A stretch of DNA of 57,610 nt from Nemertoderma westbladi (Eukaryota > Animalia > Xenacoelomorpha), in NCBI GenBank assembly GCA_032718475.1, contig JAUCBJ010008763.1, positions 1-57,610 on the forward strand. The letters run 5' to 3'. The notes under the pieces are model-generated. The model made no database searches and was not told the DNA's origin. It saw nothing but the letters and a program-made list of their open reading frames with translations. Each line of letters starts with the position of its first letter. Positions within the stretch are counted from its first letter, which is position 1. Below are positions 7,602 to 47,214 of the stretch, one piece after another. The translations under genes were made by a program, and so were the position numbers.

Positions 7602-7736
7602 TGTTGCAACATTATTGAAAATTGTTACAAAATATTAATTATTTATTATTATTATTATTATTATTATTTTCGCTACGTTTATAGTCAATGTAATTTTAAT
7701 GTAACAATTTTGATTATGAAATATATCCGATCTAAA

Positions 7737-14208: not shown

Positions 14209-14631
14209 GGCACTGGTTCGATATGGGTAGGCCTACCGAGTTTTTTTTTATATTTGTAACTATATTACTGTTCTAGAACACACTGTATACACTATACACT
14301 GTATTGGTACCCCCTTTATATCTTTATTTATTTGGTTAGGTTTGGGTTACAGTGATTAGGTTATGTTGATTGGGTTACGGTGATTTGGCTAAGTTGAACT
14401 AGTTGGCCGGGGGGACGCGCTTCGTGCGTACTCGCTTCGCTCGCCCGGCCAATTAGGGGTAGGGTAAGATTTTGGTTAGGGTTAGAGTTCAACTCGCCCA
14501 TTTACCAAATGTGCTTTGTATTATTAATACATTGTGTTCTAGAACAGTACGGTAATATAGTAACAAATAAACAATTGTAAAATGTAACAAAAAAAATCAG
14601 AAATCTCCATACCCATATCGAACCAGTACCC
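14209..14631. mobile_element. MITE with GG termini and 8-bp TSD (Merlin/MuDR-like)
   Basis: ACCATAAT at 14201-14208 and 14632-14639, with ~80-bp imperfect inverted arms (GGCACTGGTTCGATATGGGTA). The second copy (26452-47170) is split by the BEL element. Confidence 0.75.
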
Positions 14632-22050: not shown

Positions 22051-24329
22051 CAAAGTTATCAGTTCTTTAGAATTGTCGATTATATAATAATATATCATCT
22101 GAAGCAAAGAAAATTGATCTATATTATATCCAGTGCCATTTATATTGTTTTATGAAATAAATCCATTAATTACTGTGTGATGCTGTGTCTGTCCTTAAAG
22201 GTGCGGTAATCCATGTATCCAGAGTCTGCAGGTCTGAGTGTATGGCAGAGCTAGAGGTAAAGCCGATGTCCAGTCCATACTGCCCTACAGTATGTCACTG
22301 TCAGAATGTCAGACACCTAACGAGACTACAGTATCTGACTACAGTATGTCTTTCAGGCAGTCAGGGAAATCCTGGGGACAAACAAAGCACATATTTTTTC
22401 AGTATTAATACCTAATACGTGTACTATATCCGAAACTGAAAGTTTTAAAAAATGTACCTTTTATACTACAGTATAACGATACAGAAACTATTTACTCTAC
22501 TGCTCTATACTGTATAAAATTTATTCTTAATTAATAATTATTTTTAATCTTTTGTTTAATATACAAATTTTAATACAGTATTTAACATTTTAATATTCAG
22601 ATATTTTCTTGCTATCATGCACCCCGGTCAGCCTGTACAATCAGCGCGTCGCACATCAGCACATGTACACATGTAACTAACAGTACAACATATCGTAGGG
22701 CAGTTGGAAGTTCCGTACCTGCTGACCCGTACTGTATTTTTTCGTTGGAATACATATACTGCAGCACACTGTACACTTCACACACTGCACACTGTTAACA
22801 CTGGACCCACGACCTCCAAGAGATGTGAATTCAATGCAACCACTACACCAAGGTCTCTTTGATTAAGAAAATGAATTAAATAATTATTGAATGCTTTTAA
22901 ATTTAATGTTGTAATTTAGTGTCGTAATTCAAAAACATGATACCACCCCACCCCCCCTTCCCTAACTTTTATACAAATTTTAATGAATAGATGATATGAA
23001 ACAGAGTTACAGTAGTTTCACCTCCCTCATCCGTAGTAACTGAGACAGAATTTGTATTTTTGCTTTTTATTCTTTAGCAACAAGCGTTTGAAAAAAGTGT
23101 CACCGGCGGCGATATCATCACCAGTCCCATCTCAGTTATTCAACCTTATATTAATTTGTTGGTTCTGATGGAAAGCTGACCATGCAACGATTCCAAATAT
23201 GAAAAAATGGAAATTTAGAAAATACAGTTGCTGAGATATGGGCTTTCGAATGTTGAATGTTTTTTCACGGCGCAAGGCTATTTTTATATTTAATAAATAA
23301 ACCATGTTCTAGAACATGATGTAAAAACGTAACTAGGGGGTGTTCGATAAAGTATGTCACGCACTAGGGGGGGGGGGGGGGGGGGGGGGGGTGTCGACTT
23401 TTGTGACGGTTACGGCGATGTTCTAGGCTTTAATGTTAGATAAATTATAAATTTTTATACTACAGTACTGTATTATACTATTTAAACTATTAAATTTCTT
23501 AGTGTTTTAATTTAATATTTGTTTATAATAAAAAGTCTTTATAATTCAAAAAATAATAATTCTCTTTAGTTGAAGTGGGATCTTATAACATCATTTAATA
23601 CATTTTGAATTTATGAATTGTCAAAAACTAGTTGAAATTTTCTTGTACTGTAGAGTTTTTTTTTCACCATCGAATTTTAACCATCCGCTCCCAATTTTTT
23701 TCATCTCTTTTTTTTTAACCATTTGAACTTCATTTTTGAGATTTTTGCAATATTTTGCGACATATTGTCATATTTTGCCATGTTTTTAACCAAATCTTTA
23801 AGTTTTTAACCATTTTGTCAAAATTAAAGGCTTGTTTATTTCTTTAACCATTAACCATCGGGCCAGAATCTTTACTAAATGGTTTAAAAAAAACTCTACA
23901 GTAGTTTGACAATTTTTGTCAGTCTGGTAATTATATTGGACAGACCATTTGGATTGGTGCAACTCTACAATCAATGAAACTACATTATTTACGTATGAAC
24001 TTCCAACCATATTGCGCTCATATACAGTAGAGTCTGAACATGTGAACAATTTTCAGGAAATTGGTATACATCCATTCTTAAGCGAAAAATTTTGTGAAAT
24101 TTGGTGACAATAATTTGTGATAAGTTAGTGTAAAAAAAGTAGTTGAAATTTTACTGTAGTTTGACATTTTTTGTCAGTCTGGTAAAAGCAACGTTGAAGC
24201 AGTAAGAGCAATTTGGAGTTAGCATGACACAGGGATTTTCAATTCAATGGAGTTGAAACTTATTTTGAATCAGCCACATCAGAAGGGGATGCAGAAAAAG
24301 AGCCAAAAACATACCAAAATCGGTCTGAC

Positions 24330-25922
24330 GCTGAAAGCGAATTTTCTATATCTCAGCGGCCAAAAAGGCCGCTGAAAGCGAATTTTCTATATCTCGGCGG
24401 CTAAAAAGGCCGCTAAAAGCGAATTTTCTATATCTCGGCGGCTAAAAAGGCCGCTGAAAGCGAATTTTATATGTCTCGGCGGCTAAAAAGGCCGCTGAAA
24501 GCGAATTTTATATGTCTCGGCGGCTAAAAAGGCCGCTGAAAGCGAATTTTATATGTCTCGGCGGCTAAAAAGGCCGCTAAAAGCGAATTTTCTATATCTC
24601 GGCGGCTAAAAAGGCCGCTCAAAGCGAATTTTATATGTCTCGGCGGCTAAAAAGGCCGCTGAAAGCGAATTTTATATGTCTCGGCGGCTAAAAAGGCCGC
24701 TGAAAGCGAATTTTCTATATCTCAGCGGCCAAAAAGGCCGCTGAAAGCGAATTTTCTATATCTCGGCGGCTAAAAAGGCCGCTAAAAGCGAATTTTCTAT
24801 ATCTCGGCGGCTAAAAAGGCCGCTGAAAGCGAATTTTATATGTCTCAGCGGCTAAAAAGGCCGCTGAAAGCGAATTTTATATGTCTCGGCGGCTAAAAAG
24901 GCCGCTGAAAGCGAATTTTATATGTCTCGGCGGCTAAAAAGGCCGCTGAAAGCGAATTTTCTATATCTCAGCGGCTAAAAAGGCCGCTGAAAGCGAATTT
25001 TCTATATCTCGGCGGCTAAAAAGGCAGTTGAAAGCGAATTTTCTATATCTCGGCGGCTAAAAAGGCAGTTGAAAGCGAATTTTCTATATCTCGGCGGCTA
25101 AAAAGGCAGTTGAAAGCGAATTTTCTATATCTCGGCGGATAAAAAGGCCGCTGAAAGCGAATTTTCTATATCTCGGCGGCTAAAAAGGCCGCTGAAAGCG
25201 AATTTTCTATATCTCGGCGGCTAAAAAGGCAGTTGAAAGCGAATTTTCTATATCTCGGCGGCTAAAAAGGCAGTTGAAAGCGAATTTTCTATATCTCGCC
25301 GGCTAAAAAGGCCGCTGAAAGCGAATTTTATATGTCTCGGCAGCTAAAAAGGCCGCTGAAAGCGAATTTTATATGTCTCGGCGGCTAAAAATGCCGCTGA
25401 AAGCGAATTTTATATGTCTCGGCGGCTAAAAATGCCGCTGAAAGCGAATTTTATATGTCTCGGCGGCTAAAAAGGCCGCTGAAAGCGAATTTTCTATATC
25501 TTGGCGGCTAAAAAGGCCGCTGAAAGCGAATTTTCTATATCTCGGCGGCTAAAAAGGCAGTTGAAAGCGAATTTTCTATATCTCGGCGGCTAAAAAGGCA
25601 GTTGAAAGCGAATTTTCTATATCTCGGCGGCTAAAAAGGCAGTTGAAAGCGAATTTTCTATATCTCGGCGGCTAAAAAGGCCGCTGAAAGCGAATTTTCT
25701 ATATCTCGGCGGCTAAAAAGGCCGCTGAAAGCTAATTTTCTATATCTCGGCGGCTAAAAAGGCAGTTGAAAGCGAATTTTCTATATCTCGGCGGCTAAAA
25801 AGGCAGTTGAAAGCGAATTTTCTATATCTCGGCGGCTAAAAAGGCAGTTGAAAGCGAATTTTCTATATCTCGGCGGCTAAAAAGGCAGTTGAAAGCGAAT
25901 TTTGTACGTCTCGGCGGCTAAA
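24330..25922. repeat. 41-bp satellite array, about 39 copies
   Basis: Unit GCTGAAAGCGAATTTTCTATATCTCGGCGGCTAAAAAGGCC, with no spacers. Confidence 0.97.
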
Positions 25923-26755
25923 ATTTTTTATCTCTTGGATGGACGAATGACAATTTGTTTGCTAAAGAGAGATTTTAGAAAGTCCAATTTTTGTCAGAAC
26001 CATATTTGTTAACTCACAAACATACAGTACCTGACCAAACAAAATCAATTAGTTTTCATTTAATTCCATTTAATTTAATTTAATTCAAAGCGAAATATAA
26101 ATCATATGACAGCCAAGACTTTACTAACATATCTGTAGTGGAGATTGCCTTGTTTACAGATTTCGCCCACTCTTTGTTCTCATTGTATTGTGTTATCACA
26201 CCGTATTTCCAGCTTCAGTCAGTCAATTATTATCACTCTGTAATATTATTGGTTCCCAATTGGCTATCGCACATCTATACGTAGCTAGGAGACATACATA
26301 TTTTTGTGGTGGTTAGTTCCAAGTGTTAGTTTTTAGTGCAGTTACTGTTTTCCAGTTTACTGTTCAGATTACATTTCACGTATTTATCACACATTATGTT
26401 TCTTTACTTTATCGTTATGGTGACCACTGACCACTCATGGTTCACCATAATGGCACTGGTTCGATATGGGTAGGCCTACCGAGTTTTTTTTTATATTTGT
26501 AACTATATTACTGTTCTAGAACACACTGTATACACTATACACTGTATTGGTACCCCCTTTATATCTTTATTTATTTGGTTAGGTTTGGGTTACAGTGATT
26601 AGGTTATGTTGATTGGGTTACGGTGATTTGGCTAAGTTGAACAAGTTGGCCGGGGGGACGCGCTTCGTGCGTACTCGCTTCTCTCGCCCGGCCAATTAGG
26701 GGTAGGGTAAGATTTTGGTTAGGGTTAGAGTTCAACTCGCCCATTTACCAAATGT

Positions 26756-27899
26756 TGTAAAGGCTTTTGCGTAATTAGCCGGTTATTTTACCCGTAAAGT
26801 ACTCTGTAGTTGGTTTAACAGGCATAAAAGGCCGTGTCCTTGCTGTACTGGTGTTTTAGAGGACATAAAAGCCATTTCTTCTGTATGTGTACTTTAGCGG
26901 ACATAATCCGCAGTTTTATGACGCAATGCGCCAAATCCTCTGTAAACAGTGTGGCTGCCATGGCGACGGCTAACAGCTGATATTGCCACATAGAACATCT
27001 CTTTGTTCTTTGTTCTCTCTTTGTTCGGTCGACCAATCAGAGCGTTTTTTTGCCTCTGTGTTGGAGATTTTATATAGAAACTAGGGAAGTGAGTCAGTAT
27101 GTGATTTTTGTCCACAGCCTACAACACCGGCGTGGAACCTCCGTGTTTCAGTCTTTAGTTCAATATTAGTAGGCTTAATTATAGAACGTATATCCGTTAT
27201 CATACTTAACTAACCATTCATACCTTAAACTTTGTACTGCTATTTACTGTCGGTTATTCATTATATTTGTTGATGGAATATTATATTCGGAATACTGATA
27301 AACAATCAGACACCCCAATCTTCTTGATATACTAAAGGTTAGAGAGACCGGATACATATAACGATTGCGACTTACATTAAGTGGTTTGAAGTGAATCTAA
27401 TGCTATTTTATAGGCCCTACACGTATTGTCTGTTGTTCTCCTTATATGTGACTAAAATTAGTGAAGGTCGGCAGATTAGTGTGCAGCATTGTGCAGTATT
27501 GTGTATGATTGTGATTGATAACGAAGCATCTCCTAAAGAATGCGCCATATACGTGAATCTATAGCCATCCCGTTGTGTATAGTTTAAGTCATAACTCTGT
27601 TTATATATTTAAAGCGCCACGTCCTAAAGGAACTGTTAATATTTCCCGAAAGTGAATAATATTTGTCAGAGATTATATATATTACGATCAGTCGAATAAT
27701 ACAGTAGGCCTACCCCGCAATACGGTTAGGCTTCCGAATCCAGTCTCCTGGGTATATCCAGCGGGTGAATGATCGCGCATAGACTGGATTCGGATAATGT
27801 AGTGTATGAAATACTTGTTATAGGCTAAAGACTATTTATCATCTAAAAAGACATCCAAATTTGGCAGGTTAAACTGCTAAAGTTCTGAAAGCGCGAACA
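26756..27899 (+). repeat. 5' LTR of BEL element 1
   Basis: TGTAAAGG...GCGCGAACA; about 10 substitutions versus 45903-47046 counted by eye. Confidence 0.96.
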
Positions 27900-27920
27900 A
27901 TAATGGATATACCTTCTGTA
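27900..27920 (+). promoter_or_regulatory. Non-tRNA primer-binding site candidate, complementary to 27180-27200
   Basis: ATAATGGATATACCTTCTGTA pairs with TATAGAACGTATATCCGTTAT (2 G-U pairs, 1 mismatch). The pairing covaries in element 2. Confidence 0.65.
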
Positions 27921-28180
27921 TTGCAGTAGGCAATAAAGCTGAAGTACCGGCAACCGGTACCCAGTAGGCCTGACTACCTAACCACCCGGACCGGTACCTA
28001 CAGCAGTACAGGTACAGCAGTATTATTCGATTTTGATAATTATATACCGGTAGGCCTTAATAATTAATCAGGGACGGCCGCCCTGGTTTTTTATTGAGAT
28101 TTTACTTATTTCTGTCAAGTTTTATTTATTTGTAGGCTAATATTGAGCAGAAGGTGTGTAAGCCTGCTCAGATTGTACAG

Positions 28181-28755
28181 ACAATTTGTAGGCTAGACTG
28201 TTGTCTGACTGTTGTTAAGTCTGAACGGATTGCAGTGTGTGTAGAGCATCTGTCCGATAAAGTGCTAGTTAGGAACGTAGGGGCTTCAAGTGCTGTGAGG
28301 TAAACCCCCTTTGAAAGAATAAGTCGTACTACTAGGTTAGAACGCATACTAACTAATCATTTCGGAGTCTGCATATACTGTAGTTTATTTAGGCTTGATA
28401 GTAGTCTGCCAGCGTTCGGTCTGTACTTTGTTTGTGTAGTCTATACAGGTAGCGTATAATTATTATTTAGATAATTTGTAGGCTGGATAGTTGTCTGGCT
28501 GTTGTTAGGTCTGAGGAAATTTCGGTGTGTGTAGAGTGTATGTCCGATAAAGTGCCAGTTGGGAACGTAGGGGCTTCCAGTGCTGTGTGGTAAACCCCCT
28601 CTGAAAGAATAAGTCGTACTACTAGGTTAGAACGCATACTAACTAACCATTTCGGAGTCTGCATATACCGTAGTTTGTTTAGGCTTGATAGTAGTCTGTC
28701 AGTATTTGGTCTGCATCTTGTTTGAGTAGTCTGTACGCGTAGCGTAATATTTATT
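28181..28755 (+). repeat. ~290-bp tandem duplication in the BEL 5' leader
   Basis: Two diverged copies starting near 28181 and 28471; single copy in element 2 (~54195-54475). Confidence 0.85.
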
Positions 28756-30080
28756 ATTCAGAGTTTATGCGATTATTCGCAACATTCATTCCCCAAGTTT
28801 ATTCCTACAGTAATTGTGCTTGTTATACATACCGTTATAGTTAAACTAACCCCGGTACTACATCAGGGCTGCTCGGCGTAGGTAAAGACTGGAGATTTTG
28901 TGCTTCGGTCACTCCGGCAGATACCGTGGTTCTTTTAGCTGTTCAAGTATTTTAACTACTAATTATTTGTTGTATAAGTACTTGTACCTAATTTAGGGTT
29001 TAGTGTACAGTGCTTTCCGAAGGCAATTAGTGTGTAGGCAGTATATTTGTGTTGTAAAGTGGTTAATAGGCACGTTGGTTCTGGTAGACCGCGGTAATTA
29101 ACTTCTAGGTAGGAACACTCCGTGATACATAACGTAGTACTTATAGCGATACGGCTATAAGTCGTCAGACGGTGGTATTTTTCTATCTGGACAACGCAGT
29201 ATATTTACTACTACTTATTATTTTCAAATACTGTAGTACTCTGTCCGTTGTAATAACCAGATTTCTAACCCTTTGTTAGGCTGGTTAGTAGACTTCTTGT
29301 AAAATTACCCTAAAAAATTCGTACTTGTAAATTTTTGTGTTTATTTAGAGATTGTAATCTCACCCCGAATTGTACGTAATTTGTAGTATTAAGTAACTTA
29401 GGTAAATTAGAATTATTTGTTTTAGTGTCCAACAAGTAGCACTTCACTGAGAGCGCACAGCTTCTGTGTAGTGACTCCCCCAGAAATAATAACATTTATT
29501 TCAAATATTGACAAAACCCATTAAACGGGTATATATATATTATAAATCAACTCAAAGATTTATAAATAGTAGGCCTGCCATACAACAATTAGGTCTAAAT
29601 ATCAGTTGGACTACTGCTTAAATAACGGTAATAAAGTAAGTTAAAGTAACCAAGTAACCCCTGAAATTTCAGAAATTCAGTTATTCTAAAATAACTGACA
29701 TACCGGTATTTACAATAGGCTTATTATATTTATTTCTATAAATTTTAGGCTGAAATTATACCGGTATTCTGTAATTAATTCTAGTTAATAATTATACTTA
29801 TATATACTATAAGTGTAAGCTGCATACCGGTATTCACGATAGGCCTATTATATATTTATATATATTTGTGCTGAAATTACCTACCGGTATTCTGTGACAA
29901 ACCTAGTCTGTAATAATACTTATATACTATAAGCATACCGGTATTCTAATATATTATATATATATCACGCTACACTGAGTAGCAGTATCGGTAATTAATT
30001 ACTAGGCTAACAGTGATACTGAATTACTAGACTTGCTTAAACTGTAATAGAGCAGTAGGCATTGAACTGTACAAACAAAC

Positions 30081-33000
30081 ATGTCTGACACTAAGCAAAA
30101 CCTGTCGGACAGCCTCCTAGATACAACCATCTGTGACCCAGACAGGAGTGTGGAACGTGAGAGACCGAAGTTCAATTCACCTCCTACTGTAAGAAAGATC
30201 ATCCCTCCAGTAGTAATATCAGACCCTAGGCTGGTCCAACACCGTAGGTCTATCATAGGCACTCGAGCTCAGGTCAAGCGGGACCAAGAAGCAGCGGAAC
30301 CGCAACAACCCGCGAGCCAAGAACTTATTTCTCAACGGCCCGACAGCTCCAGTAGTGCGGATACTGTAGAGCTGACACCCGAGCACGGAGCAAAGATGAC
30401 AGATGCGGTTTATTCGGACCCCCTTCTCATCCTTCCTGCAGCCGTACTCACTAGGTTATTGATTGTGGTGGAAGAACACCAGATCGATTGGGCGAGAAAT
30501 AAGCGATCGACTAAAGATAGTTATGCGGGATACACAAGGGAAGAACTGAAGTCTATTGTCGAGTCGCAATGGAACTTCCCCGGACCCGGACTCCCGTTTG
30601 ATTTATCAGAAGCTGCCTGGGAAGACATACACAGGATGGGAGTAACCAAGGAAACCATCGATCCAGCTGTGTGGAAGAGGTCCGCAGCCGGATACGCACA
30701 GGGATTCTTCAGCTCTATGGAGCGATTAAAAGAACAACTGTTTCAACAACCCCAAGGACCTCAAGAGCAGGGACAGCTGCTTTATCAAGTTAGAGAAAGA
30801 ATTCTATGAATCAGGCTAATCTTATCGGCCTTTGAGGAGGCTTCTAAAAGAAGACAAGACACGTCGTTGCAAGTTGCCGTAAAGACTTGGTTTCAACGGG
30901 TGAGTCTCCAGGTTCAAGGAACGGCTCAGTGGAAAGTTCAACTAGATGAGCGCTCAACCCATGGAGAATCAACAGACGCTACTTTTTCCCAAGTGGAAAG
31001 TGAAGCGACGGCAGAGAAACCGCATAAGAGGGATGCCATTGACATCTATCTGTCAGACTATCAACGTTTTTTAGGTGATGAAGAGTTGAGGAGAAGGCTA
31101 GATGGACTTAGCCCTAATAGTGAAGGAACCCAGCGTGTGTTGGACGCCATCGATGTGGATATGAGAGCTGCGAACCAAGCTAAATTTGATGAACAACTCC
31201 GCATCACTAGAGTCCAAGAAGAACAAGTGAAGAAAAAACGTATAGAAGACAGAAAGGCAGCAGCAGTGGCAGCAGCAGTGGCAGCTGCAGAAGCAGAAAG
31301 AAAAGCGGCAGTGGCAGCGGCAGAGGCAGAAGCGGAAAGAAAAGTGGCAGCGGCAGCGGCCGAAGCGGAAAGAAAGGCGGCAGTGACAGCGGCAGAGGCA
31401 GTAGCAGAAGCAGAACGGAGAGCTTCTGAAGAAACCACCCAATTAGAATTGGAAAACATTCAGGAGAATCAAGACTGCATAAATAAACAGTTAACAGCTA
31501 GTAATATGCAGATGATGAGTCGATCTACTCCCAAAAGACAGGGATATACATCATCTGAGGAAGGCGATACCACCGATACTGAAGGCAGAGGAAATAGATC
31601 TCGTCTAAGCAGACGTAGAAGAACATCCCACCGTCAGAAATTGCCTGATCTGCCCCCAGCTGTTAGAAGGCAACTAAATAACACAAACTTAGGTAGTATA
31701 GAACCCACAGACCAAATAATTAACATAGAAAGACTCCCTACTATAGTAGATGAGCCTGAAATAATTAGGCCTGTTCTCGAAGCAACTCCTTCGGTGATAG
31801 AGACACCTGTACTCCCTGAACCTACCTCTAAATTCCCTCTGCACAGCACAAAGCTACCTGTGCCCCACAGAATCACCCCTGAAATTGTTCATGTCCTGGA
31901 CTCCAAGCGAAATATTCATGACTTGTCGCCCATTGTCCCTCGTCCGCCCGCTACAACGTTGGCGCCTCCCGCTTCGGCGGTCGAGTGGGTGGATGAGAGA
32001 CGATGGGGGATGGATCTCCTGCTCGGGCAGATGCAGGAGACCGTTCAGCAATTCAAGGGCACAGTAAGGGAAAGTAGGTTAGAGTTGCAAGAAGTGCAGC
32101 AAAGTATCGCGTTAGAACGCGATAAATTAGTAAATACACAAAGGGGTATACCACCAACCCCGGTAACAATGTGTCAACCTGTTAGGTCTGAAGTATTTCA
32201 TGCGCAAGGTGTGGTGCCTACACGCATATATACTGCTAGCGAAGTGGAAACTCCTATAGTGAACCCTATTAAGGTTAATTATAGACCTGTTGATAATGAT
32301 ATTCCCTATAGACCTGATCATAATCCGAGAAATTTATATACCGATAACTCGATAGTAAATAACACGATGGCCCAAGAAAGTTTTACGCGTCAAATGGCTA
32401 GAACCGAAGCACGTCAAGCGGTAAAGGTGGGAGAGATAGTCAAGTTCAATGGAGATGAGATGAAATGGTTACCTTTTAATGAATATTACAAAGATAACAT
32501 ACAGAACTCTGTGCTATCTAATGGAGAGAAACTTAGATTCCTCATCGAGTGCTTGGAAGGATCTCCCAAGTTAATGGCGTTAAAGTTTATTGGACATCCA
32601 GACGGATTAAGACAAGTTTGGGATACACTAAACATCAGGTATGGTAATAGGAATAACATAGCTGGGTATTTGTATGCAAAGTTGGTAGCGCCCCGAAAGT
32701 TTATTAGCAGCGGGATTATAGAGTTTTCCGATGAGATTCAGGAGATCTGCAGACAATTAGATTGGCTAGGTAAGTCTCATGAGTATCAGAGTGCTATGGT
32801 TATTAGAGCAGTGGCTTCTACTTTACCGAAGGGTGGAGTAGGTACACGCTGGGACAAGAAAGTGTTATATATGATGGAACAACAACAACGAGACCCTACC
32901 ATGGCTGATCTCATGTCATTCTTGGATGGCGAAGTGAAATTACAGCTCATAAAGCAGTCCAGAGAGAAGACACCGGAAAACAAGGTAAGTGAGAAACACG

Positions 33001-36000
33001 TCTCTAGGAGAAAGGTGACACCAGTGTGTTATACAGACGACAGCGAAAGCCAGACTTCTCAAGGAGAGGATAGCGGGAAAGACACTGAAAGATCTTATTA
33101 TGTCAATAAAACGCCTAAAGAACAGGTAAATAAATTCAAGTCTCAAACCAATGACAGGAGAGAACAGGTAAGAAAAACTCCTCCTACGTCTCCCAAGAGA
33201 ATTCAGGTGAGAAAGCCCGAAGAAAGAACGAGTGTGCACACTGTTATTCAAAATAAGGTAAGTAACATCAAACCGAAATGTGCGCTATGTGACGGGACCC
33301 ACCGTTTGAATATGTGTGATGAATTCCTGAAGAAATCATTAGCGGAGAGACGGGAAGTCATGTGGGATAAGCGGTTGTGTTATAATTGCCTCAGACAAGG
33401 ACACCAACGGCGAACCTGTTACTCTGACACAAGGTGTGCAAAGTGCGGTGCAAAACATCATATCTTGTTGCACACTGAATTTGAGCGAAACAGCCAGAGT
33501 CAGGTAAGTGATTCCGAACTACATGTCCAATTCAGTGATGTGAACGACACTGACCAAAGTTCTGAGATGGAAGGATTCTATACAGATGAATTCTCCGACG
33601 AAGGTGAATCCTGTTACATGATAAATACCGCAGTGTATCGAGCACTTACATATGAAAAAGACACAGACAGCGACCTCACCCTAACTACTTCTGATCGACA
33701 ACCATCTTGGAAAGCGCCACCTTCCAATGTAGGAATCCGAGAATTTCCTGTAGTACAGGTAAGGGTCCACGGACCTAAAAGGAGTTATGTAGTGAACGCC
33801 CTCCTTGACTCCGGTAGTACAGGAACATTCATCGATAAAGAACTAGACGAAGACATCTTTGCTGGACAACCCAAGTTCCGAACTAAGCTAAACATGTCAG
33901 GAATTATGCAGGTTTGGAAATCTACAGTAATAGCGGATTATTATGTAGGTGCGTTGTCCACCCCCCAGGATGAACTAGGAGAACATAGTATAAGGTCAGT
34001 AAAAATGGTAGCAATAAAGAACTTCGCTACCACCCAAGTGGAACCTTATAACTGGGATGAGGACGATTTCACCCAGCAGCTAGAAATACCTAGATTCAAC
34101 ACCGATTACCCTGGAGTGCAAATACTCATCGGTCAAAACGCGCATGAAGCGCTCGAGACATTGGAGAAACGGCCCGCTCAACCGCAACCACTACAAGCTT
34201 ATGCGGGAAGAACTAGAGTGGGTTGGTACTTTACTGGCCCTTCCCGTAGAACTCTCATGGAAAGATTACGGAAAGACCAGGTATGTCAAGTGAGAGAATG
34301 GGAAGTCGAGGGCAGTGAGTTAGATGATCTAACTGAGGGAACACCATACTCCTCAGATAATGACGATGTCCACCAACTTTTCGATGAGGAGAATACCATC
34401 GATCTCCTTAAGGAAAACGAGACTTGGCAAAACCAAGTGAACTTATGTCAGCTCCTTCTTCCATCAGAACGAGACGACTATAACGAAGAACTTAATGACG
34501 TCATTGAACGATATAATGCCAAGACTCGGGATGAACATGCCGTACGATTCTTTACTCAAGAGGCTGTAGAGCCCAATTCCTACGATAAGGCCCTATCGGT
34601 AGAGGAAGAAAGAGCCAAGCAGATCCAAGAGACAACTACACGTTTTCTTAAAGATCAAGGTAGATATGAGATCGGTCTACCTTTCCGAAAGCGAGAACCA
34701 AAGTTCGTAAACAACAGACCCTTGGCGGAGAAAAGAATTGCTCAACTACATTGACGCCTTACGGCAAATTCTTTAGCTAAAGAAATGTATCAAACGCAGT
34801 TGAAGAAATTTATTAGCAAGGGATATGCGGAGCTAGTACCGGAAGAAACACCTATAACTGAGAGAACGTATTATTTAACTCACCATTATGTTCCCAAACC
34901 CGGTAAACCCCATGAAGTATGAGTGGTGTTTGACGGCTCCGCCCTCTATATGGGCCAATCCCTTAATTCTGAATTGTTACCCAGACCCAACTTACTCCAA
35001 TCCTTGTTGGGAATACTCTTAAGATTAAGACAATATTCAATTGCTTTCGCCTCAGATATAGAAGGCATGTTCTTACAAGTCAAGGCGCCTGATAGGGATC
35101 GAGACAGCCTACGATTTCTGTGGTGGCCTGAAGGAGACCTCAACCAGAAACCGGTGGAGTACTGGATGACCATCCAGGCTTTTGGGATAATCTCGAGCCC
35201 TTCAAATGCCTGTTCCGTGGTGCGCACCACTGCGGATGACAACCGAGACGCCTTCTCTAAAGAGATGATTGACAACATCAAGCGAGATATATACATGGAC
35301 GACAATCTAAAGTCCCTTCCATCAGTCGAAGAAGCCATTGATGTCGCTAAAGGAACGGTAGAGTGCTTAAAAAGAGGTGGATTTCGATTAACTAAATTCA
35401 CCAGCAACTCCCGTGAGTTTCTGGAGTCGATCCCGGTAGAAGATCGAGGAGCGAAAGACCTGGATCTAATAAAAGATGATCTCCCAGAAACTAAGACCCT
35501 TGGTTTGAAATGGGACACCGAAAGAGATATCCTGTTTTTCCAACTAAAACAGCGAGATAATCCAGTTCGGACTAAACGGATTTGTTTAAGTATCCTGAGC
35601 ACTTATTTCGATCCATTGGGATTTATTAGCCCAGTTATATTGATTGCTCGGAGTTTAGTACAACAAATGTGGCTTGAAAACCACTCATGGGACGATCCAC
35701 TTAAGGGAGAATTATTAAAGAAGTGGATGAAATGGGAAGATTCTCTACCAGCCATCGAGAACTTTATAATTTCCCGTTCATATTTTGGTCATGTTCTCCC
35801 TACGTATTCCTATCAACTCCATGTGTTTGGAGACGCCAGCGATATGGGAATAGGTATAGTAGCCTACCTAAGGGTGGAAACTCCGGATGGAATCAAAGTC
35901 GCCTTGGTTACTTCTAAGGCATTGATAAACAATAAGTTGAAAGTTCCTCGAGCGGAGTTAAAAGCGGCTCTATACGCTACAGCCATCGGCCGGAATGTAA

Positions 36001-38170
36001 CAGAACAGATCGACTATCCACTGGAGAAAACTGTCTATTGGACCGACGCTTTACTCGTGTTGGAGTATATAACCAATGAAGTCTGTCAGTTCAGCGTCTT
36101 CGTTACCAACAGAGTAGCCATTATACTCAGTCGCACAACGATGGATCAATGGAGACATTGCCCCGGAACGATTAATCCAGCAGACATCGCCTCCAGGGGA
36201 GCAACTCCACAAGAACTGGTAGACACTCCAGACTGGTTAGGTGGACCCGACTTCCTCTACAAAGAAGAAGAAGAATGGCCTGGCCTCCTCATCTTACTAC
36301 AGCAGAGATTAGACAGGCCAAGGGAGCGGAGAAAGTCAAACCTAAAACTCGGGCGAGTAAATCGAAGTTATTCAAACCCATGGTAGATCTGTCTGTACTA
36401 CATATTTCCGGAGACGACGCTTTGGATCAGAAACCCACAGCCACAAATAAACTTGTTGTGGAAATCCGTGAGAAGGATTGGAAATCTGGAATACCAGACG
36501 TCTCGCAAGGACTCTCACCTCTTCTGCAGAGAGCGATACATCACTACAGTTCCTGGAATCGGCTCTGTAAGGCCGTTACATATTTAAAGAGATGTTTTCA
36601 CCATCAATACTCCGGGATGAAGGCCAAAGGTGATACCGCTCCAATAACATCAGTGCAGGTCCATGTTATTAAAGATCTTCCCAAATATAAGATACCCGAC
36701 AGGTTTCTGAAGGAGAAGATCAGTTATCAGGAGCATGAAGAAACCAACAAGCAGATGCTGAGACTCCTGCAATGCTATTAGGATTCCGATAAGTATTTCC
36801 TGTTGTTGAGAAATCCACAGATGCGCTTAAGGGATCGTTTCTCTAGCACAATGATAGATGGGTTGATACGTGTTGGAGGAAGATTAACGAATGCTCCACT
36901 ATCCTTTGACACTAAGTTTCCCATACTCATTAGAAATCTTGAAATACAAGTCAAGATGATTGTAGACATTCACAGCAAACTTTATCATGCTGGTAGGGAA
37001 CGAGTTCTTAGCGAAATTCGAACTCGCTATTATTTTTATAAACCCCGTAGAGCTCTGAACCAAGTTCTTAGGAACTGCATACCCTGTAGGAAAGCATTCA
37101 GTAGGCCTTTAACACAGCGAGAGGCAGAATTACCTAGGGAACGAGTAAGCTTCTATGAACCACCCTTTACTAATACCGGTGTGGATTTATTTGGTCCCAT
37201 TGAAGTATATCGTGCTAGGACTATAGTCAAGAGATGGTGTGTCATCTTTGTTTGTATGACTTGTAGAGCTATCCATCTCGACATGGTGAACGATTTATCT
37301 ACCAACAGCTTTCTACTAAGCTTACGACGACAGATCGCTCGCTTTGGCACTAGTAACACGATGAGATCTGATAAGGGAACAAACTTCATTGGTGCCAACA
37401 ATGAAATCAAAGCTTACGTCAAAGATTGGAACCAAAGACAGGTGGACGATCAGCTACGAGTAACAGCGTCTAGCTGGACCTTCAACCCCGCCGACGCCCC
37501 TTGGTGGGGAGGAAGTTGGGAGAGATTAATAAGAAGTGTGAAGACAGCATTTCACTTTATAGTGCCTTGCCGCGCGTATCTCACCGACGAACTTTTGCGG
37601 ACGTTAATGGAGGAAATCGCCGCCTATCTCAACGAGAGACCACTTATGCCAGTCTCATCGAGTCCCGATTCCCTGGAAGCGCTAACACCCGCGCATTTCC
37701 TACTAAAGAAACCTGTAGCCATGCTCCCACAATCGGAAATCACAGACGGAGACGAATTCTGTCGGCAAACTTGGCAACTCATGCAGTTGTTATCCCGTCG
37801 TTTCGCTGACCATTTCGAAAAACATTATCTGCCCACGCTACAACTTCGAACTAAGTGGTTTGCGCAGCAAGAAAACGTCAGCGCTGGAGACATGGTTCTT
37901 ATTGTGGATGTAGATCTTCCACGTAAGCGGTGGCAGACAGGTCGTATCATCGAGACTCACATCTCGGATGACGGTTTGGTGCGATCGGTAGAACTCGTCG
38001 TCATGCGACGTAACTTCAAGAAACCGGGAATCGTCTTTGAGACACAGCAACTCAATCGCCCAGTTGGTCGTTTATGTTTACTGGAAAGAGACAGAGAACT
38101 CTCCGGAAACTATGGGAGGCAAGATAGATACTCTTCCCACGACCACCTCCCTAATCCAACCAACATCTAG
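30081..38170 (+). pseudogene. BEL/Pao gag-pol polyprotein, disrupted
   Basis: Gag core FNGD..W..F, three Cys/His knuckles, protease ALLDSGS, RT YMDD, RNase H FGDAS / WTD / NPADIASRG, integrase GVDLFGP / SDKGTNF / GGSWERLI. Stops at 30807 and 34752; frameshifts near 36290 and 36780. Confidence 0.96.
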
Positions 38171-38829
38171 GGACTCCCCAGCTTAGTAGCATATGGAGTG
38201 GGTGTGTGACCATATTATTTTATATTCTTATTATTTTATATTTATGTATGTATTATTATGTAATTTTATTATAATCGTTTTATTTAATTTTATTTAGTAG
38301 CATGTTATTTTAGCGATTATTTAGTAGATTAGTGCAATATATTCGCGTTTATTACGTAATTACTTATATTATATATTTAGTGCGACGGCGAGAAACAATT
38401 CTTTTTCTCTTTCCTTGCTGCCCGTATTACATTACGAATACGTAACTACAGTAAGATGAAATGTCCGTACTTATTAAAGTACAATAAAGCCACTACTATA
38501 TTCAAGTATTATTGGTAGGCAGAGTATTAGGAATGCAAAGTTCAGATCCTCGTGTCTCAGCTAAACCAAGCTCTGGGTAGACCTTGGAAACGACTTGCCT
38601 CTTCACACTGACATTGCTTCGTGCGATATTGCTCTCATACCGTATATTAGATAATACATATAGTAGCGTGATGTCCCTTTAACAGTAGCGTATAACGCAA
38701 AATAAATCTGTTAAACCCTTTGACCATCTGCAATTCTAGTCGATTAAGATATCGCGGCACCCACCGATATACTTGAAAGACAAAATTCTAGAATCAGTGG
38801 TTAACGTCCCCAGGCAAGTTCTGGAATAA

Positions 38830-39212
38830 GGGGCCGTCCAAGTATGACGTCAGCACTTTCGGGTGGGGAGGGGGGTTGGGAAAATCTGATGACGTGCTGA
38901 TGAGGGGAGGGGAGGGGGTCAGCCAAAATCTGACGTCAGCATGTTCATTTATAGGTGCTAGAAGAGATATAGCAGAAGAGTAATTAGCTTGCCTATTTTA
39001 ATTGTTCGAAGCCCCAGAAGGCCCGTAGCACAACCTTCTGTTTCAGTTACCAGTCACCATGTTTCAGTGATTAGCACGCGAACATTTTTTTTAATCTGAT
39101 TTAGGGGAGGGGGGGTGTCAACGCCTATCCACTATCTGATGACATCTGATTTAGGGGAGGGAGGGGGTCAACATTTTGGAGAAAAGTGCAGACGTCATAC
39201 TTGGACGGCCCC
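38830..39212. mobile_element. PIF/Harbinger-type MITE
   Basis: TAA TSD and TIR GGGGCCGTCCAAGTATGACGTC; G-rich interior. Confidence 0.88.
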
Positions 39213-39350
39213 TAAACTGGTGCCCATCCTAAATATTAATTATTAATATTTACAAAATCTGTCAAATATCAGATCCTTTAAAATTCTAGTCGATTAAGAT
39301 ATCGTAGCACTTACCGATACTCTTAAAAAGACAAAATTCCTAGAATCAAG

Positions 39351-39953
39351 GATAATGATATTACAACGCTCTATCACCATCTGGAAAAGCTGCAGGACGA
39401 TAATGAGAACTCAGAACAATATTCGAAAAATTACAACCTTCTCTTCCATGGGATTTCTAACGATAAAGCTGCAGTGGATATCGCTCTTAAATCTGCTGGT
39501 ATTTCCCCATCGGACATAGATATAATGCACCGAATGCCGCCACCAAGATCTGTTGGTAGATTTGCTGATACCAGATCGTCGGCAGCTCGATCGCGCCCCC
39601 TTATCGTAAGATTCATTTCCCGAGAAAAACGTCTATCGGTTATTAAGATGAAAGAAAAACTCCCCAATAATGTATACTTAACTGAGCATCTCACAGCGCG
39701 TCGATCCGGTCTCCTACGTTCTCTAAAACAACTCAAGAAATCAAAGTTGATTCACTCAGCATTCTCTCGCAATGGTTCTATCCTCTGTAAAATAAAACCT
39801 GACGATTCGACACGCACTATTCGATCCTCTTCTGATATTGATGATATTCGAGGGAGAGTTGCCGGAACCAAGATGAACGTCACCGTAGGAGTTAATGATT
39901 CTACAAATCTTATCAATGAGTCCATTCTTTCTACCACCAGCAACTGCGACTAA
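39351..39953 (+). CDS. LINE ORF1 C-terminal part (RRM-like)
   Basis: EQYSKNYNLLFHGI, IDIMHRM, RPLIVRF, VYLTEHLT; the 5' end is missing. Confidence 0.85.
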   Translation, partial: DNDITTLYHHLEKLQDDNENSEQYSKNYNLLFHGISNDKAAVDIALKSAGISPSDIDIMHRMPPPRSVGRFADTRSSAARSRPLIVRFISREKRLSVIKMKEKLPNNVYLTEHLTARRSGLLRSLKQLKKSKLIHSAFSRNGSILCKIKPDDSTRTIRSSSDIDDIRGRVAGTKMNVTVGVNDSTNLINESILSTTSNCD

Positions 39954-40135
39954 CGTAAATCTTCGCCTGCTCGCCTAATAAACCTCAAATTACCATGCAA
40001 ACTCGGTACCGGTTCCGTGTAGGTTATCTGAAATTTTTTAGTACACAGTAGTACAGTGCAGTACTTCGAACTATTGGGATTTTATTTTGACATTGCCTTT
40101 GCCATTATTTTATATTAAATTCCAAAATATATTAT

Positions 40136-43100
40136 ATGCCAGTCAATGACCCTCGTACATCCTGCCATTTCTGCTTTTCAAAATTTAATAAAAAAGATAG
40201 TAAAATAGTATGCGATATCTGTAAGAATTCTTACCACCAGCAATGCGGTTCTAATATTACTACTCCATTATTGAATTTATCTCATATTTACTGTTTATTC
40301 TGTTACAATGATATTTTTCCTTTTAATACTATTCCGCCCGATGACTATGATATTTTTGAAAGCAATGACATTGATATTTTATTACCCGAAAATTATATGG
40401 ACTCTAATAGCACTTTTAAAAATATTGACCCGGACCAAAATTTAAATAATATAAAAACAAATTGTCAGTATTATAATGAACAAAATTTTAATAACAAGTT
40501 TGATTCTAAAAATACAAATTTTTCAGTGTTTCATGTAAACTGTAGAAGCCTAAACAAAAATCTAGCGCCTACCTCTGACTTCCTATCATTACTAACCCTA
40601 AATTTCGACATACTAACTTTTACAGAAACATTTATTACAGATGAGACGGATCTATCTTACTTACACATTGACGGCTACTCAACCCCACTTATTACAAACC
40701 GAAAATATGGGCTAAAAAACCGAGGGGGGACTGCCATTTACCTTAAGAACGGAATTGACTTTACTGAACGGACTGACATAACTATACCGAACTGTGAATC
40801 TACTTGGGTTACTATAAACAGAAATTCAAATAATAATCACTCCAAAAGACAAATATTAATTGGAACTATTTACCACCCAGACTCGTGCAATACTAACGAT
40901 TTCATAGATAATTTCAATTCGGTTTTAGCTTCGATCAATCAAAATACAACTGACATAATAATAACCGGCGACATGAATATAGATTTATTGAAACGCTCTA
41001 ACCACGCCAATAACTATATACAAACTATAGAATCAAATGGATTTGAACAAATAATAGACAAAGCAACTAGAATTACACCATACTCCCGAACTTTAATAGA
41101 CCATATATCAACTAATATTAACAATAAAACAGTATCATCTGGAGTTTTCCAAAGCCAACAAGGATCAACTGATCACTTAGCCACTTTTGCAATCATACAA
41201 AATTATTCCTGCCACTTTACGCAACAAGAAATGAAATATGTATATGATTACTCCAAATATAACAAAAATAAATTTATTTCAGACATAAAAGATATTAATA
41301 ACTGGACATATAACAAAACAACAGTACCCATAGAAAAACAATTCGAAATATTTTACTCTGATTTTCAAAATATAACCAATAAACACTTGCCAAGAAAGAT
41401 CCTAGAAAAAAAAGAAATTCCTAAAAAACCTTGGATGACTCCCGCGTTAGTACAATCAACAATCAAGAAAAATGACCTATATGCAAATCTAATTACTAAC
41501 CCTACATGCGAAAAAGAACAGTTTTATAAACAATACCGCAATAAACTAACAACAACTCTTAGAAAGGCTGAAAAAAACTACTACCACTCAGAATTCGAGA
41601 AACACAAAACAAATACAAAAAAAACATGGCAAACAATAAACAAAGCACTAAATAAGTCAAATAACTTGAATACTCCAAAAAAAATTAGCATATCAACAAC
41701 AGTAGGAACCATAAATAAAACTCTCCCAAAAGAAATTGCCAATGTACTTAACCAACACTTCGCTAATATAGGTCCAGAACTAGCAGAGACAATTCCGAGA
41801 AGTAACCGTAACCCAACTAGATTCATAAACCACCGTAAGTCAAACTCATTCTACCTATCAGATACAACGCAAACTGAAATACTATATTACCTACTAGACC
41901 TAGACAACAACTGCTCTACTAATGACCTATTCCCCATACAACTAGTTAAAACTGCAGCACACGACCTATCACCTCACTTAACTTACTTAATTAACAAATC
42001 AATTAATAATGGAATTTTCCCAAAAGTACTAAAACAAGCAAAAATTACCCCAGTCTACAAAACAGGCGACCCTACAGATAAAAACAACTACAGACCAATA
42101 TCGGTCTTGCCGCTATTTAGCAAACTCTACGAACGTATAATTAATACCCAACTCATAACCTACTTAGAAAAATACTCAATTCTATCTCACTGCCAATACG
42201 GTTTTAGGAAACGTTCTACTACAACAGACGCTATACTTACAATCACAGAAAGACTACTTGAATCTCTTGACCATCACGAATCATCATGCCTAATTTCTAT
42301 AGATTTAAAAAAGGCTTTTGATACCCTGAACCATAGCATCCTCTTAAAAAAATTAAACTGTTACGGTATCAGAGGTCTTCCGCTCCAACTATTCACAAGC
42401 TTCCTCAATGATCGCTCACACACAGTTGTTATAAACCATACACACTCCGACCCTCTTACCCCACATTGTGGTACCCCACAAGGTGCTATCTTAAGTGCTA
42501 CTCTATTTTTATTGTATATAAATGACTTACCGAACTGCACAAATTTACATACTACTCTTTTTGCCGATGATACTAACATACTGTACAGTCACACCCACAA
42601 GGACACACTAATTACAAAAGTAAATAATGAACTCTCGAAAATTGATCAATGGCTCACTGACAACAAACTATCCCTCAATCTTAAAAAAACCGAATATCTC
42701 ATATTTTCAAATTCAAATACTACTATCACTCAAAAAATAAAAATAAATAATGTTAATATCAAACAAACAAATGAAACAAAATTTTTGGGCATCTGGATAG
42801 ACAATAAATTATCTTGGAAATATCACTGCTCCTACATACTGAAGAAAATTTCGAAATCCTGCGGAATATTTTTTAAACTTCGCCATATCTTGCCATTAAA
42901 TATACTAAAAATGATTTTCTATGCACTGATACACCCATATATTCAATATGGTATAATATTATGGGGAAACACGCACCATAAATACATATACCCACTCAGA
43001 GTAAAAATAAATAAAATAATTCGTGCAATAACATTTAATCATTACCAAGCTCATTCAAACCCAATCTATAAATTTCTGGAAATATTACCAATAGAAAAGT

Positions 43101-43390
43101 TACATATATTGGAAACATCAAAATTAATGTGGGAAATAAAAAACTCAAAAAAACAATCTTTTATCACGTCACTTTTCTCCCTCCCCTCTACTATACATAA
43201 GTACACTACAAGATCCGTCACATCAATGAACTATTACATACCACGTACAAGACTGGTTCTAACACAAAGATCACTCAAATATCACGGTACTTTGATATGG
43301 AATTCACTTCCCCTGAAAATAAAAGAAAGTAAAACTAAGAAAGCACTTACCCAAAATCTCAAAAAGTCATTGCTAAGCGATCTAACTTAA
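40136..43390 (+). CDS. LINE ORF2: PHD-like finger, APE endonuclease and reverse transcriptase (1084 aa, uninterrupted)
   Basis: CxxC..CxxC..HxxC..CxxC; HVNCRSL, TET, GDMNID, IDHI, TDH; NYRPIS, QYGFR, DLKKAFD, GTPQGAIL, FADDT. Confidence 0.96.
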   Translation: MPVNDPRTSCHFCFSKFNKKDSKIVCDICKNSYHQQCGSNITTPLLNLSHIYCLFCYNDIFPFNTIPPDDYDIFESNDIDILLPENYMDSNSTFKNIDPDQNLNNIKTNCQYYNEQNFNNKFDSKNTNFSVFHVNCRSLNKNLAPTSDFLSLLTLNFDILTFTETFITDETDLSYLHIDGYSTPLITNRKYGLKNRGGTAIYLKNGIDFTERTDITIPNCESTWVTINRNSNNNHSKRQILIGTIYHPDSCNTNDFIDNFNSVLASINQNTTDIIITGDMNIDLLKRSNHANNYIQTIESNGFEQIIDKATRITPYSRTLIDHISTNINNKTVSSGVFQSQQGSTDHLATFAIIQNYSCHFTQQEMKYVYDYSKYNKNKFISDIKDINNWTYNKTTVPIEKQFEIFYSDFQNITNKHLPRKILEKKEIPKKPWMTPALVQSTIKKNDLYANLITNPTCEKEQFYKQYRNKLTTTLRKAEKNYYHSEFEKHKTNTKKTWQTINKALNKSNNLNTPKKISISTTVGTINKTLPKEIANVLNQHFANIGPELAETIPRSNRNPTRFINHRKSNSFYLSDTTQTEILYYLLDLDNNCSTNDLFPIQLVKTAAHDLSPHLTYLINKSINNGIFPKVLKQAKITPVYKTGDPTDKNNYRPISVLPLFSKLYERIINTQLITYLEKYSILSHCQYGFRKRSTTTDAILTITERLLESLDHHESSCLISIDLKKAFDTLNHSILLKKLNCYGIRGLPLQLFTSFLNDRSHTVVINHTHSDPLTPHCGTPQGAILSATLFLLYINDLPNCTNLHTTLFADDTNILYSHTHKDTLITKVNNELSKIDQWLTDNKLSLNLKKTEYLIFSNSNTTITQKIKINNVNIKQTNETKFLGIWIDNKLSWKYHCSYILKKISKSCGIFFKLRHILPLNILKMIFYALIHPYIQYGIILWGNTHHKYIYPLRVKINKIIRAITFNHYQAHSNPIYKFLEILPIEKLHILETSKLMWEIKNSKKQSFITSLFSLPSTIHKYTTRSVTSMNYYIPRTRLVLTQRSLKYHGTLIWNSLPLKIKESKTKKALTQNLKKSLLSDLT

Positions 43391-44304
43391 AATAGAATAA
43401 AACTTAAAATAAATAAGTCCTAGAATAGTATTAGGCCCGATCATCTATTAAACTCATTAAATAAATTTTTATCTATTAATAATCGTATATCACATCGCAT
43501 TAACTGGATATTTCAAATTTTTTTAAAATCTCAAAATGTAATTTAAATATATTAAAATCAGCAGATTGTACGAATTAAATTGATTGATATGTAATATTTA
43601 CAACAAAACGCTCGCCACGGCAACAGGGAACTATACTAGCTTTGCTACTGTTTCCTGTTTCTCATAAATACTACAATACTGTAAACAAATATTGGAACTC
43701 CAAACCTAGCACCGATCCATATAATCAAAATAACAATAAAACCCCAATTACGCACTGTACCTAAACTGGTGATGGGTTTATAATACTGAGAGCGTGTATT
43801 ATGATAACGAAACAAATAAATGAACCCTTAAGGGTTCCTTTGATTGATTGATTGATTGAATAGCATAGGGAATAAATAGCGCACTGCTAGTATCCAAGGA
43901 TACATAATAACAACGTGACATTCTGGAAGGCACTTGACTAACGGACAAATGACCCGAATGTGTGATAGAATGTGTACCATTTGTGACAGTTACGTGGAAT
44001 TTGTGCGTTTGTAGGTGAATGTTACTACTAAGGTGTGTTTACAGTAGCGAGTCGCAATTGTGAAAGTAGCCCTAACTCTCCAGTAAGAACCTGAAGTATA
44101 TCTAAGCCTTTGGGACAGACAGTGGAGTGACTTGTGCCAGTTATCGTTGTCGTTGTGTAGCTACATCGTTGGCGAAAGCACAGCGACGACGGTACATCGG
44201 CGCTGAGGATCTTGCACTGTCCGGGGGCAAAAGAGGGGTAGGCAGCGACGCCCACTAGCCTAAATATAAACTCATTATAATATTGATAAACTCATATAGC
44301 AGAT

Positions 44305-45126
44305 ATGACTAAGTTGATAGAAGATGATCTTTGTATCAGGGAGCGATATACTCTACCTTTACAAGCGTTTGTTGATAGCTTGATACGCAGCGACGCTGGT
44401 CCAACTACTACAGAGGACAATGGTCGTTATATCGAACCGCCGATGTCCCAGGAGCAACTTACGCGTGAATTGGACTATCGAAAATTCACTGCTCGCTATA
44501 CGCATCGTAATGGTACGCTTATGGACTTCTTAACTACTGGTCATCCTATCGACCTACACGATACGAACGATATAGACACCAAAAGGGAAATGGTTTTATT
44601 TAAATATCATACCCAGCGGAAGCGGAACGATAAACTGAGACTCGAACACGAAAATTCTATTCGAAACCGACTCGAAAGTGCAGATGTTGAAGAGCCGGAT
44701 AAACGCAGCGACTTCACCAAATACCTGGAATTCTTGAGAGAAACCTATCTCGATATTACCAGTCAACAGAATCTAGAAACTCGATATCCTCAAGGTATAC
44801 ATCATGACCGCATGGTAGAACTCAAACGGCTCTATTCCACTATGATGTATCTTACCGCCGATCGACCTCTACCTATTGTACCGGATAGCTTCGAACGGAT
44901 GGAAGAATATTGTAAGCTGGAGAAAGATCACTCGCGTTTCCCCTACAAGACGTGCGTTTTTGGTATTATTGCGATGAATGCCCAAGACCCAACCAACAAA
45001 CGGAAAGACATAAACATCCGCGGAGACATTGCTTTAAACACGGTTTTACTCGCTATATTTACAGGAGTTTCGAGCGAAACTTGTTCGATGTATCACCTAC
45101 GCCCGTTCGACTCAGACGATCCTTAA
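44305..45126 (+). CDS. Unknown 273-aa accessory ORF in the BEL 3' region
   Basis: Open frame between pol and the 3' LTR, preceded by TATAAA near 44265. No signal peptide or recognisable domain. Confidence 0.6.
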   Translation: MTKLIEDDLCIRERYTLPLQAFVDSLIRSDAGPTTTEDNGRYIEPPMSQEQLTRELDYRKFTARYTHRNGTLMDFLTTGHPIDLHDTNDIDTKREMVLFKYHTQRKRNDKLRLEHENSIRNRLESADVEEPDKRSDFTKYLEFLRETYLDITSQQNLETRYPQGIHHDRMVELKRLYSTMMYLTADRPLPIVPDSFERMEEYCKLEKDHSRFPYKTCVFGIIAMNAQDPTNKRKDINIRGDIALNTVLLAIFTGVSSETCSMYHLRPFDSDDP

Positions 45127-47046: not shown

Positions 47047-47214
47047 AATGTGCTTGGTATTATTAATACATTGTGTTCTAGAACAGTACGGTAATATAGT
47101 AACAAATAAACAATTGTAAAATGTAACAAAAAAAATCAGAAATCTCCATACCCATATCGAACCAGTACCCACCATAATATCAAAGCAAACTATTTTCTTC
47201 CTCTATGGTTAACA

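Follow-up and report, generated by a model that had tools for sequence, protein, structure and literature searches.

A BEL/Pao retrotransposon family of Nemertoderma westbladi that probably primes reverse transcription with a strand of its own LTR RNA

The window, by which is meant the whole stretch of DNA analysed, comprises 57,610 nt from Nemertoderma westbladi (assembly GCA_032718475.1, contig JAUCBJ010008763.1), and contains two related LTR retrotransposons, both on the forward strand, as are the LTR, primer-region, PPT and gag–pol features given for them below. Element 1 (26756–47046) is complete but broken. Its LTRs, at 26756–27899 and 45903–47046, are 1144 bp each, have TG...CA termini and differ at 10 positions (99.1 % identity). 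They are flanked by copies of an AATGT target site duplication (TSD; 26751–26755 and 47047–47051), and the uninterrupted target is found in an empty-site paralogue at approximately 14490–14530; the LTR ends were set from these features (two LTR copies, TSD and empty site), without use of the pairing described below. A TATA-like box followed by an Inr-like TCAGT (27071–27098), lying some 90–117 nt upstream of the candidate primer strand and present in element 1 only, may be the promoter. GATAAA at 27297–27302, which is kept in both elements, may act as a weak polyadenylation signal, and AATAAA is absent from the element 1 LTR. Downstream are a gag-protease region (30066–34754) with a match to DUF1759, interrupted by a stop at 30807–30809; the RT–RNase H segment of a broken pol (34923–36386), which matches Pfam Peptidase_A17 and contains a YMDD motif; and an integrase segment (36782–38170) with Integrase_H2C2 and DUF5641, the Pfam matches occurring in that order. 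A short purine-rich tract at 45895–45902, just 5′ of the 3′ LTR, is a candidate polypurine tract (PPT). The coding region is disrupted by stops, and element 1 also carries two nested elements, a LINE (39327–43860) with an open 1099-aa ORF2 encoding endonuclease and RT, and a MITE (38829–39213) whose terminal inverted repeats are 31 bp long. A 278-aa ORF (44290–45126) lies downstream of the integrase and ahead of the 3′ LTR, for which no Pfam match, homologue or clear membrane segment was found, and which is therefore not considered env-like.

Element 2 begins at 52637 and extends past the end of the window, such that only its 5′ part is included, and its 3′ LTR and the second copy of any TSD would lie outside. 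Its 5′ LTR (52637–53825) is 1189 bp, of which the first 400 nt or so do not align to element 1 (48–56 % identity), with the remainder being 66–86 % identical per 100 nt. Its gag (55783–57610) is broken and ends at the window edge; four-fold degenerate sites within gag are 62 % identical (80/130) between the two elements. A leader of 2.2 kb separates LTR and gag (27900–30080 in element 1, 53826–55790 in element 2), and harbours 290-bp tandem repeats and splice-acceptor-like tracts. One stretch of it, 28756–30055, displays 82–100 % identity between the two copies, which is above that of the coding region and points to a recent recombination event or to strong constraint. Two G homopolymers, each exactly 25 nt long, occur in the window, at 23367–23391 and 52612–52636; the second adjoins the 5′ side of the element 2 LTR in the manner of a PPT, yet it is a leader and gag that follow this LTR.

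With regard to classification, the closest proteins are BEL/Pao polyproteins of cnidarians, echinoderms, molluscs, amphioxus, tunicates and fish (38–45 % identity). By its LTRs, TSD, gag–RT/RH–IN domain order and protein identity, element 1 is a BEL/Pao (Belpaoviridae) retrotransposon. The 18-nt primer-binding site (PBS) for host tRNA-Arg or tRNA-Gly is absent from elements 1 and 2, as it is from all 12 near relatives with fixed LTR boundaries (see below), and despite this the protein evidence keeps the family within BEL/Pao. Nor does element 1 belong with the Tf1/sushi group, as its pol is of BEL/Pao type and not that of a Ty3/gypsy chromovirus. Two trees, built with unnamed relatives only, agree on a well-supported branch that separates element 1 and the non-tRNA elements from the three TGG-PBS elements included. 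On the non-tRNA side, the position of element 1 is unstable, being sister to the self-complementary group in one tree (support 0.85) and nested near locus L018 in the other (96.5). From host range, we would guess at an affinity to the Sailor (Sinbad/Sparrow/Surcouf) or Suzu clades.

The first-pass annotation had reported that the sequence following each 5′ LTR pairs with a site inside that same LTR, and this pairing was reproduced in full. In element 1, 27900–27920 pairs with 27180–27200 through 13 bp (one G–U), one mismatch and a further 7 bp (one G–U); the candidate self-primer strand is thus the 13 nt of 27188–27200, complementary to the PBS-position sequence at 27900–27912, with 27180–27186 contributing the 7 bp beyond the mismatch. 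In element 2, the PBS-position sequence at 53826–53837 is a perfect 12-bp complement of 53082–53093, a site that aligns to, and is homologous with, the element 1 strand. In both elements pairing begins at the first base past the LTR-terminal CA. Compared without gaps, the PBS-position sequences of the two elements disagree at 7 of 12 bases, with the changes being matched in the partner strands; with one gap allowed, the differences resolve into three compensatory substitutions, one G–U/G–C change and a matched one-base indel. Duplex energies are −14.2 and −12.6 kcal/mol for the own pairs of elements 1 and 2, respectively, as opposed to −2.7 and −2.5 kcal/mol for the crossed pairs, so that each PBS fits only its own strand. 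The chance of such an anchored helix occurring anywhere in the LTR is 5.0 × 10−4 for element 1 (at most one G–U) and 1.9 × 10−4 for element 2, and only 1 of 100 internal decoys reaches 12 bp in the latter. A second, 10-bp complement in element 1 (27751–27760) is not conserved and is equalled by 2 of 100 decoys. It is apparent from these observations that the LTR–PBS pairing is real and not a product of chance.

For comparison, 110 loci with related RT were collected, 16 of which have LTR ends fixed by two LTR copies; the other 94, with no usable second LTR or with repeats that are not the LTR of the element, were left out of the boundary-fixed counts. Ten of the 12 boundary-fixed relatives of non-tRNA type possess a self-complement of 10–12 bp lying 0–4 nt from the LTR end. 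In eight of these (L004, L009, L018, L022, L024, L050, L089 and L090) a perfect match of 10–12 bp forms across a predicted GT..AG junction, and in the other two, L081 and the 3′ LTR of L030, it is a contiguous 11 bp. L010 and L087 have no hit of at least 10 bp, the latter showing one mismatch by eye. No more than 1 of 100 internal decoys was as good in each of the positive boundary-fixed relatives, and when close kin (L022/L024 and L089/L090) are merged, about eight of ten families are positive. By contrast, none of the four TGG-PBS controls (L100, L103, L105 and L109) is positive, none of them exceeding six contiguous pairs or matching across a junction. Scanned blind, the 33 loci that extend 300 nt or more upstream of gag gave a similar picture, with a complement of at least 11 bp in 15 of them (12 across a junction, 3 contiguous), as against 3 of 264 shuffled sequences; three further loci reached 10 bp, and 15, including three of tRNA type, had none. 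Judged by its signature in sequence, self-priming is predicted to be clade-wide, the signature being present in many relatives and missing from those with a tRNA PBS. At the DNA level, the LTRs of elements 1 and 2 show no similarity to any of the 110 loci (best E-value 0.31), no relatives were found among the viral contigs scanned, and an exact pattern of the 22-nt core had no matches in metagenome contigs.

Near relatives without a TGG PBS contain GT..AG intron-like stretches in the LTR, splicing there being a prediction from the GT..AG signals. Such a stretch, of approximately 70–450 nt, is seen in the 5′ LTR of L004, L009, L014, L018, L024, L029, L037, L043, L050, L080, L088, L089 and L090, and its removal would give the exact PBS complement. 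No other feature of the clade is as striking as this intron-like stretch, which the family of elements 1 and 2 lacks. No junction-spanning helix was found for either element (148 junctions considered in element 1 and 101 in element 2), and the complement is contiguous in both, such that a spliced primer was rejected for this family. In L030, the 5′ LTR (1–326) shows an acceptor and an intron-like stretch at a point that is already joined in the 3′ LTR (approximately 6500–7103); identity between these LTRs is only 88 %, and their difference may reflect either intron loss or an assembly mix. Thirty of the loci, L081–L110, are animal-type BEL/Pao elements in prokaryotic genome bins, evidently through host contamination. 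The distance from primer strand to PBS also differs, with 699 nt in element 1 and 732 nt in element 2 compared to 45–222 nt in 16 relatives, making it 3–16 times longer in the former. The best reading of these patterns is that elements 1 and 2 represent a form that lacks the intron and has a spacer of unusual length.

Taken together, it is probable that this family primes minus-strand DNA synthesis with a strand of its own LTR RNA, in the manner of Tf1, rather than with a host tRNA, and very probable that the primer is element-derived in one form or another. The central claim of the first-pass annotation, that the transcript primes itself, is hence supported, and extends well beyond the two copies from which it was drawn, whilst the RNA-catalysed or branched routes that it also offered found no support (see below). 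The process would begin with transcription from a start at or upstream of 27188, with the primer strand then folding back over approximately 700 nt onto the PBS. The RNA would be cut just 3′ of the paired strand, between 27200 and 27201, and by analogy to Tf1 the most likely agent is the RNase H of the RT that the element encodes. RT could then extend the new 3′-OH through U5, with the copy in the 3′ LTR serving to restore the sequence that lies 5′ of the cut. Most relatives would have such a primer only once the LTR intron had been spliced out.

An unlikely variant of this scheme is that the element RNA acts in trans or from its 3′ end, with a small RNA, a short transcript of the LTR, the co-packaged second genome or the strand from the 3′ LTR annealing to the PBS. 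The strand is indeed present in both LTRs, with an identical copy in the 3′ LTR of element 1, and several relatives have AATAAA or ATTAAA 1–16 nt past the primer end, which would place the strand near the RNA 3′ end as well. Folding predictions bear on this in both directions. The cis helix has to span 700 nt, and although its probability is 0.99 in both elements if the folded RNA begins at the primer strand, it falls to 0.0 in element 1 when the RNA is extended to 28200 (forcing the helix then costs 16–17 kcal/mol) and to 0.0–0.26 in element 2 once further sequence is added on either the 5′ or the 3′ side; prediction at such range is unreliable, yet the window-dependent loss counts against the cis helix. 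The favouring of cis folding for an RNA that starts at the strand speaks for priming within one molecule, as does the Tf1 precedent, for which PMC7175516 describes a fold formed inside the RNA itself. Moreover, were the intron of the relatives to be inherited via the 3′ copy, that copy would have to stay unspliced.

Less likely again is that the helix is structural or regulatory, with priming by a tRNA, a tRNA fragment or some other host RNA. In favour of this, the ICTV account of Belpaoviridae, which regards their replication as poorly understood, has them primed by host tRNA-Arg or tRNA-Gly at a PBS of 18 nt (PMC8742986). The present family conforms to that account in its LTRs (within the 0.2–1.2 kb range), PR–RT–RH–IN order, PPT and animal-type relatives (PMC8742986), but not in the PBS, there being no tRNA PBS here and TGG-type PBSs in four more distant BEL elements. 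The first-pass annotation had held that no TGG-type PBS follows either LTR, and this is correct for element 2, which has CAG there, but needs amending for element 1, where a TGG (27904–27906) sits four bases past the LTR. As a tRNA PBS this TGG was rejected, since it is not accompanied by the GG at PBS positions 15–16 that all tRNA-type PBSs among the loci share. Cer7 of C. elegans, a BEL-like element, reportedly encodes its own tRNA-like primer; that primer is a tRNA-like gene, whereas ARAGORN finds no tRNA in the window and only two among the 110 loci.

Also against host-RNA priming is the variety of the PBSs themselves. Eighteen were compared, those of elements 1 and 2 and of 16 positive relatives (one per close group, with a weaker hit, of 10 bp, used for L056), and all 18 are distinct, with a mean identity of 38 % at positions 3–11. 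Only the start is common to the set, with G in 17 of 18 and T in 18 of 18, in an alignment where three rows were set in register on GT, and two were moved by one base with the helix becoming one pair longer. As the 18 PBSs all differ except for these first two bases, a single external primer is argued against, and the shared GT also ties elements 1 and 2 to the group of their relatives. The pairing, furthermore, begins at the LTR boundary and tracks the predicted splice junctions of the relatives. On this comparison, an external tRNA primer for elements 1 and 2 appears unlikely.

Sequencing-run contigs bear on the pairing in both directions. Contigs from five runs reveal a high-copy and varied family, of which many copies share a block (27166–27201) that ends one base past the pairing strand and gives way to a variable, C/A-rich linker, a boundary that speaks for self-priming. 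Summed contig depth drops approximately five- to sixfold in the first bin past 27201 (runs X1 and X3) and more than 40-fold by 27210, and the loose contig ends beyond 27201 differ among copies, depth not being a measure of copy number. At PBS position 27904, a T>A variant accounts for about 39 % of the contig depth in both X1 and X3, and none of the listed variants is the corresponding partner change at 27196, albeit that clipping near the block end may hide one. Depth halves over 27190–27197, as clipping at a variant would produce, but the partner change itself is not seen. These variant data at 27904/27196 therefore lean against strict pairing and, in lacking a visible partner change, are compatible with a host-RNA primer.

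With self-priming by a folded-back LTR strand as the preferred reading, there is still the matter of how the RNA would be cut. The spacer between the paired strands, i.e. the rest of R plus U5 (27201–27899, 699 nt), might itself cleave the RNA at 27200/27201 as a ribozyme, leaving a 3′-OH, or might support a retron-like 2′ branch. The spacer is 70–86 % identical per 100 nt between the elements, which exceeds the 62 % of gag four-fold sites, and contains a 40-nt block (27613–27652) that is identical in both. Three short helices are common to the two spacers, one of which, a conserved stem at 27734–27793, has 12 shared pairs and two compensatory changes; an invariant hairpin at 27860–27881 lies by the LTR 3′ end, near the PBS. 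Tf1 is said to have a U5 stem–loop next to the PBS in its self-priming structure.

Set against a catalytic spacer, substitutions preserve the predicted pairs at the rate expected by chance over the spacer as a whole (24/58 against 23.2 expected, and 17/45 against 18.1), although with two sequences this is a weak test. Folding energies are not unusual (z of −1.3 and −1.1), and a search of Rfam, including hammerhead and group I/II families, gave only sub-threshold hits and no credible match to the spacer. The relatives, moreover, keep the signature with spacers of 45–222 nt and no DNA similarity to this one, and recombination may account for the conservation, given the 82–100 % identity in the leader. 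The stem at 27734–27793 was considered as domain 5 of a group II intron and rejected, for its geometry differs, the triad is lost and covariation is at chance level outside the stem. As to branching, retrons prime from a 2′-OH beside an a1/a2 stem, in which a long-range stem brings two remote segments of the RNA together where priming occurs. Unlike in retrons, the 3′ end of the upstream strand is here in register for ordinary 3′-OH extension and the RT is of BEL/Pao type, and no evidence for a branch was found in elements 1 and 2. An RNA-catalysed or branched cut is thus very improbable, and the same must be said of the fuller proposition in which a large BEL/Pao clade of marine animals and fish has abandoned tRNA priming and self-primes, mostly with spliceosome-built primers, whilst the conserved 700-nt RNA of the present family cuts itself at 27200/27201 to leave a 3′-OH; were that so, the self-cutting spacer would represent a large ribozyme of a new kind, housed within an LTR. 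Lastly, it is scarcely credible that the pairing is a coincidence or a by-product of local duplication, for although a 10-bp complement does arise by chance in element 1 and the strand is A/T-rich, two subfamilies that have diverged share the anchor and show matched changes, and relatives bear the signature far more often than shuffled sequences do.

Among known systems, the closest parallel is Tf1 of S. pombe, whose RNA anneals to the PBS by its 5′-terminal 11 nt and is cleaved by RNase H at the nt 11/12 junction (PMC7175516), along with Tj1 of S. japonicus, which is self-primed from a Tf1-like, LTR-derived strand (available text of PMC4600332). That self-priming is known for Tf1/sushi elements, as the first-pass annotation stated, holds true, but the range is wider: according to PMC6317226, it has been described not only for Tf1/sushi but also for Tcn1, and has been proposed for the TAR/Houba elements of Ty1/copia. 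As these sources present them, Tf1/Tf2, Tj1, the Tf1/sushi group and Tcn1 resemble elements 1 and 2 in having no tRNA PBS and a short LTR-derived strand complementary to an LTR-adjacent PBS. In Tf1 and Tj1, on the same partial texts, cutting 3′ of this strand gives the primer, a cut that we infer for elements 1 and 2. The differences are that Tf1 is a Ty3/gypsy element with the first 11 nt as primer, whereas the present family is of the BEL/Pao superfamily, has a spacer of approximately 700 nt and a transcript that would start at or upstream of its primer strand, and that most BEL/Pao relatives, unlike the Tf1 group as there described, would need splicing to build their primer. The TAR lineage (Houba, Osr-1) is similar in that self-priming was predicted from sequence, but belongs to plant Ty1/copia, with no splice-junction primer described in the accessible parts of PMC6317226.

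For BEL/Pao itself, neither self-priming nor a splice-built primer was found in the searchable literature, that is, in the texts, partly available, that lie outside subscription journals, Repbase and supplements; the first-pass annotation's remark that it knew of no precedent is in keeping with this. The available text of one BEL/Pao paper (PMC8220671) mentions the PBS only generically, and the term is unused in those of four others (PMC554778, PMC3118150, PMC6238403 and PMC8556966). Self-priming of the whole clade, if true, would make BEL/Pao the third LTR superfamily with this mode of initiation, a point of relevance to the proposal that tRNA priming was preceded by hairpin priming (PMC3601003). 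Splicing that assembles a primer for reverse transcription is a step absent from the searchable portions of these papers, and, if true, would tie retrotransposition to host splicing control. Self-priming, if true, would also explain why PBS-based annotation may fail on such elements.

Elsewhere in the window, fragments on the minus strand at 2538–8264 match an integrase core and an adenovirus-type protease, consistent with a decayed Polinton/Maverick. A duplicated element of 2.5 kb (95.7 % identical between copies) harbours arrays of a 41-bp repeat at 24329–25923 and 49056–51838.
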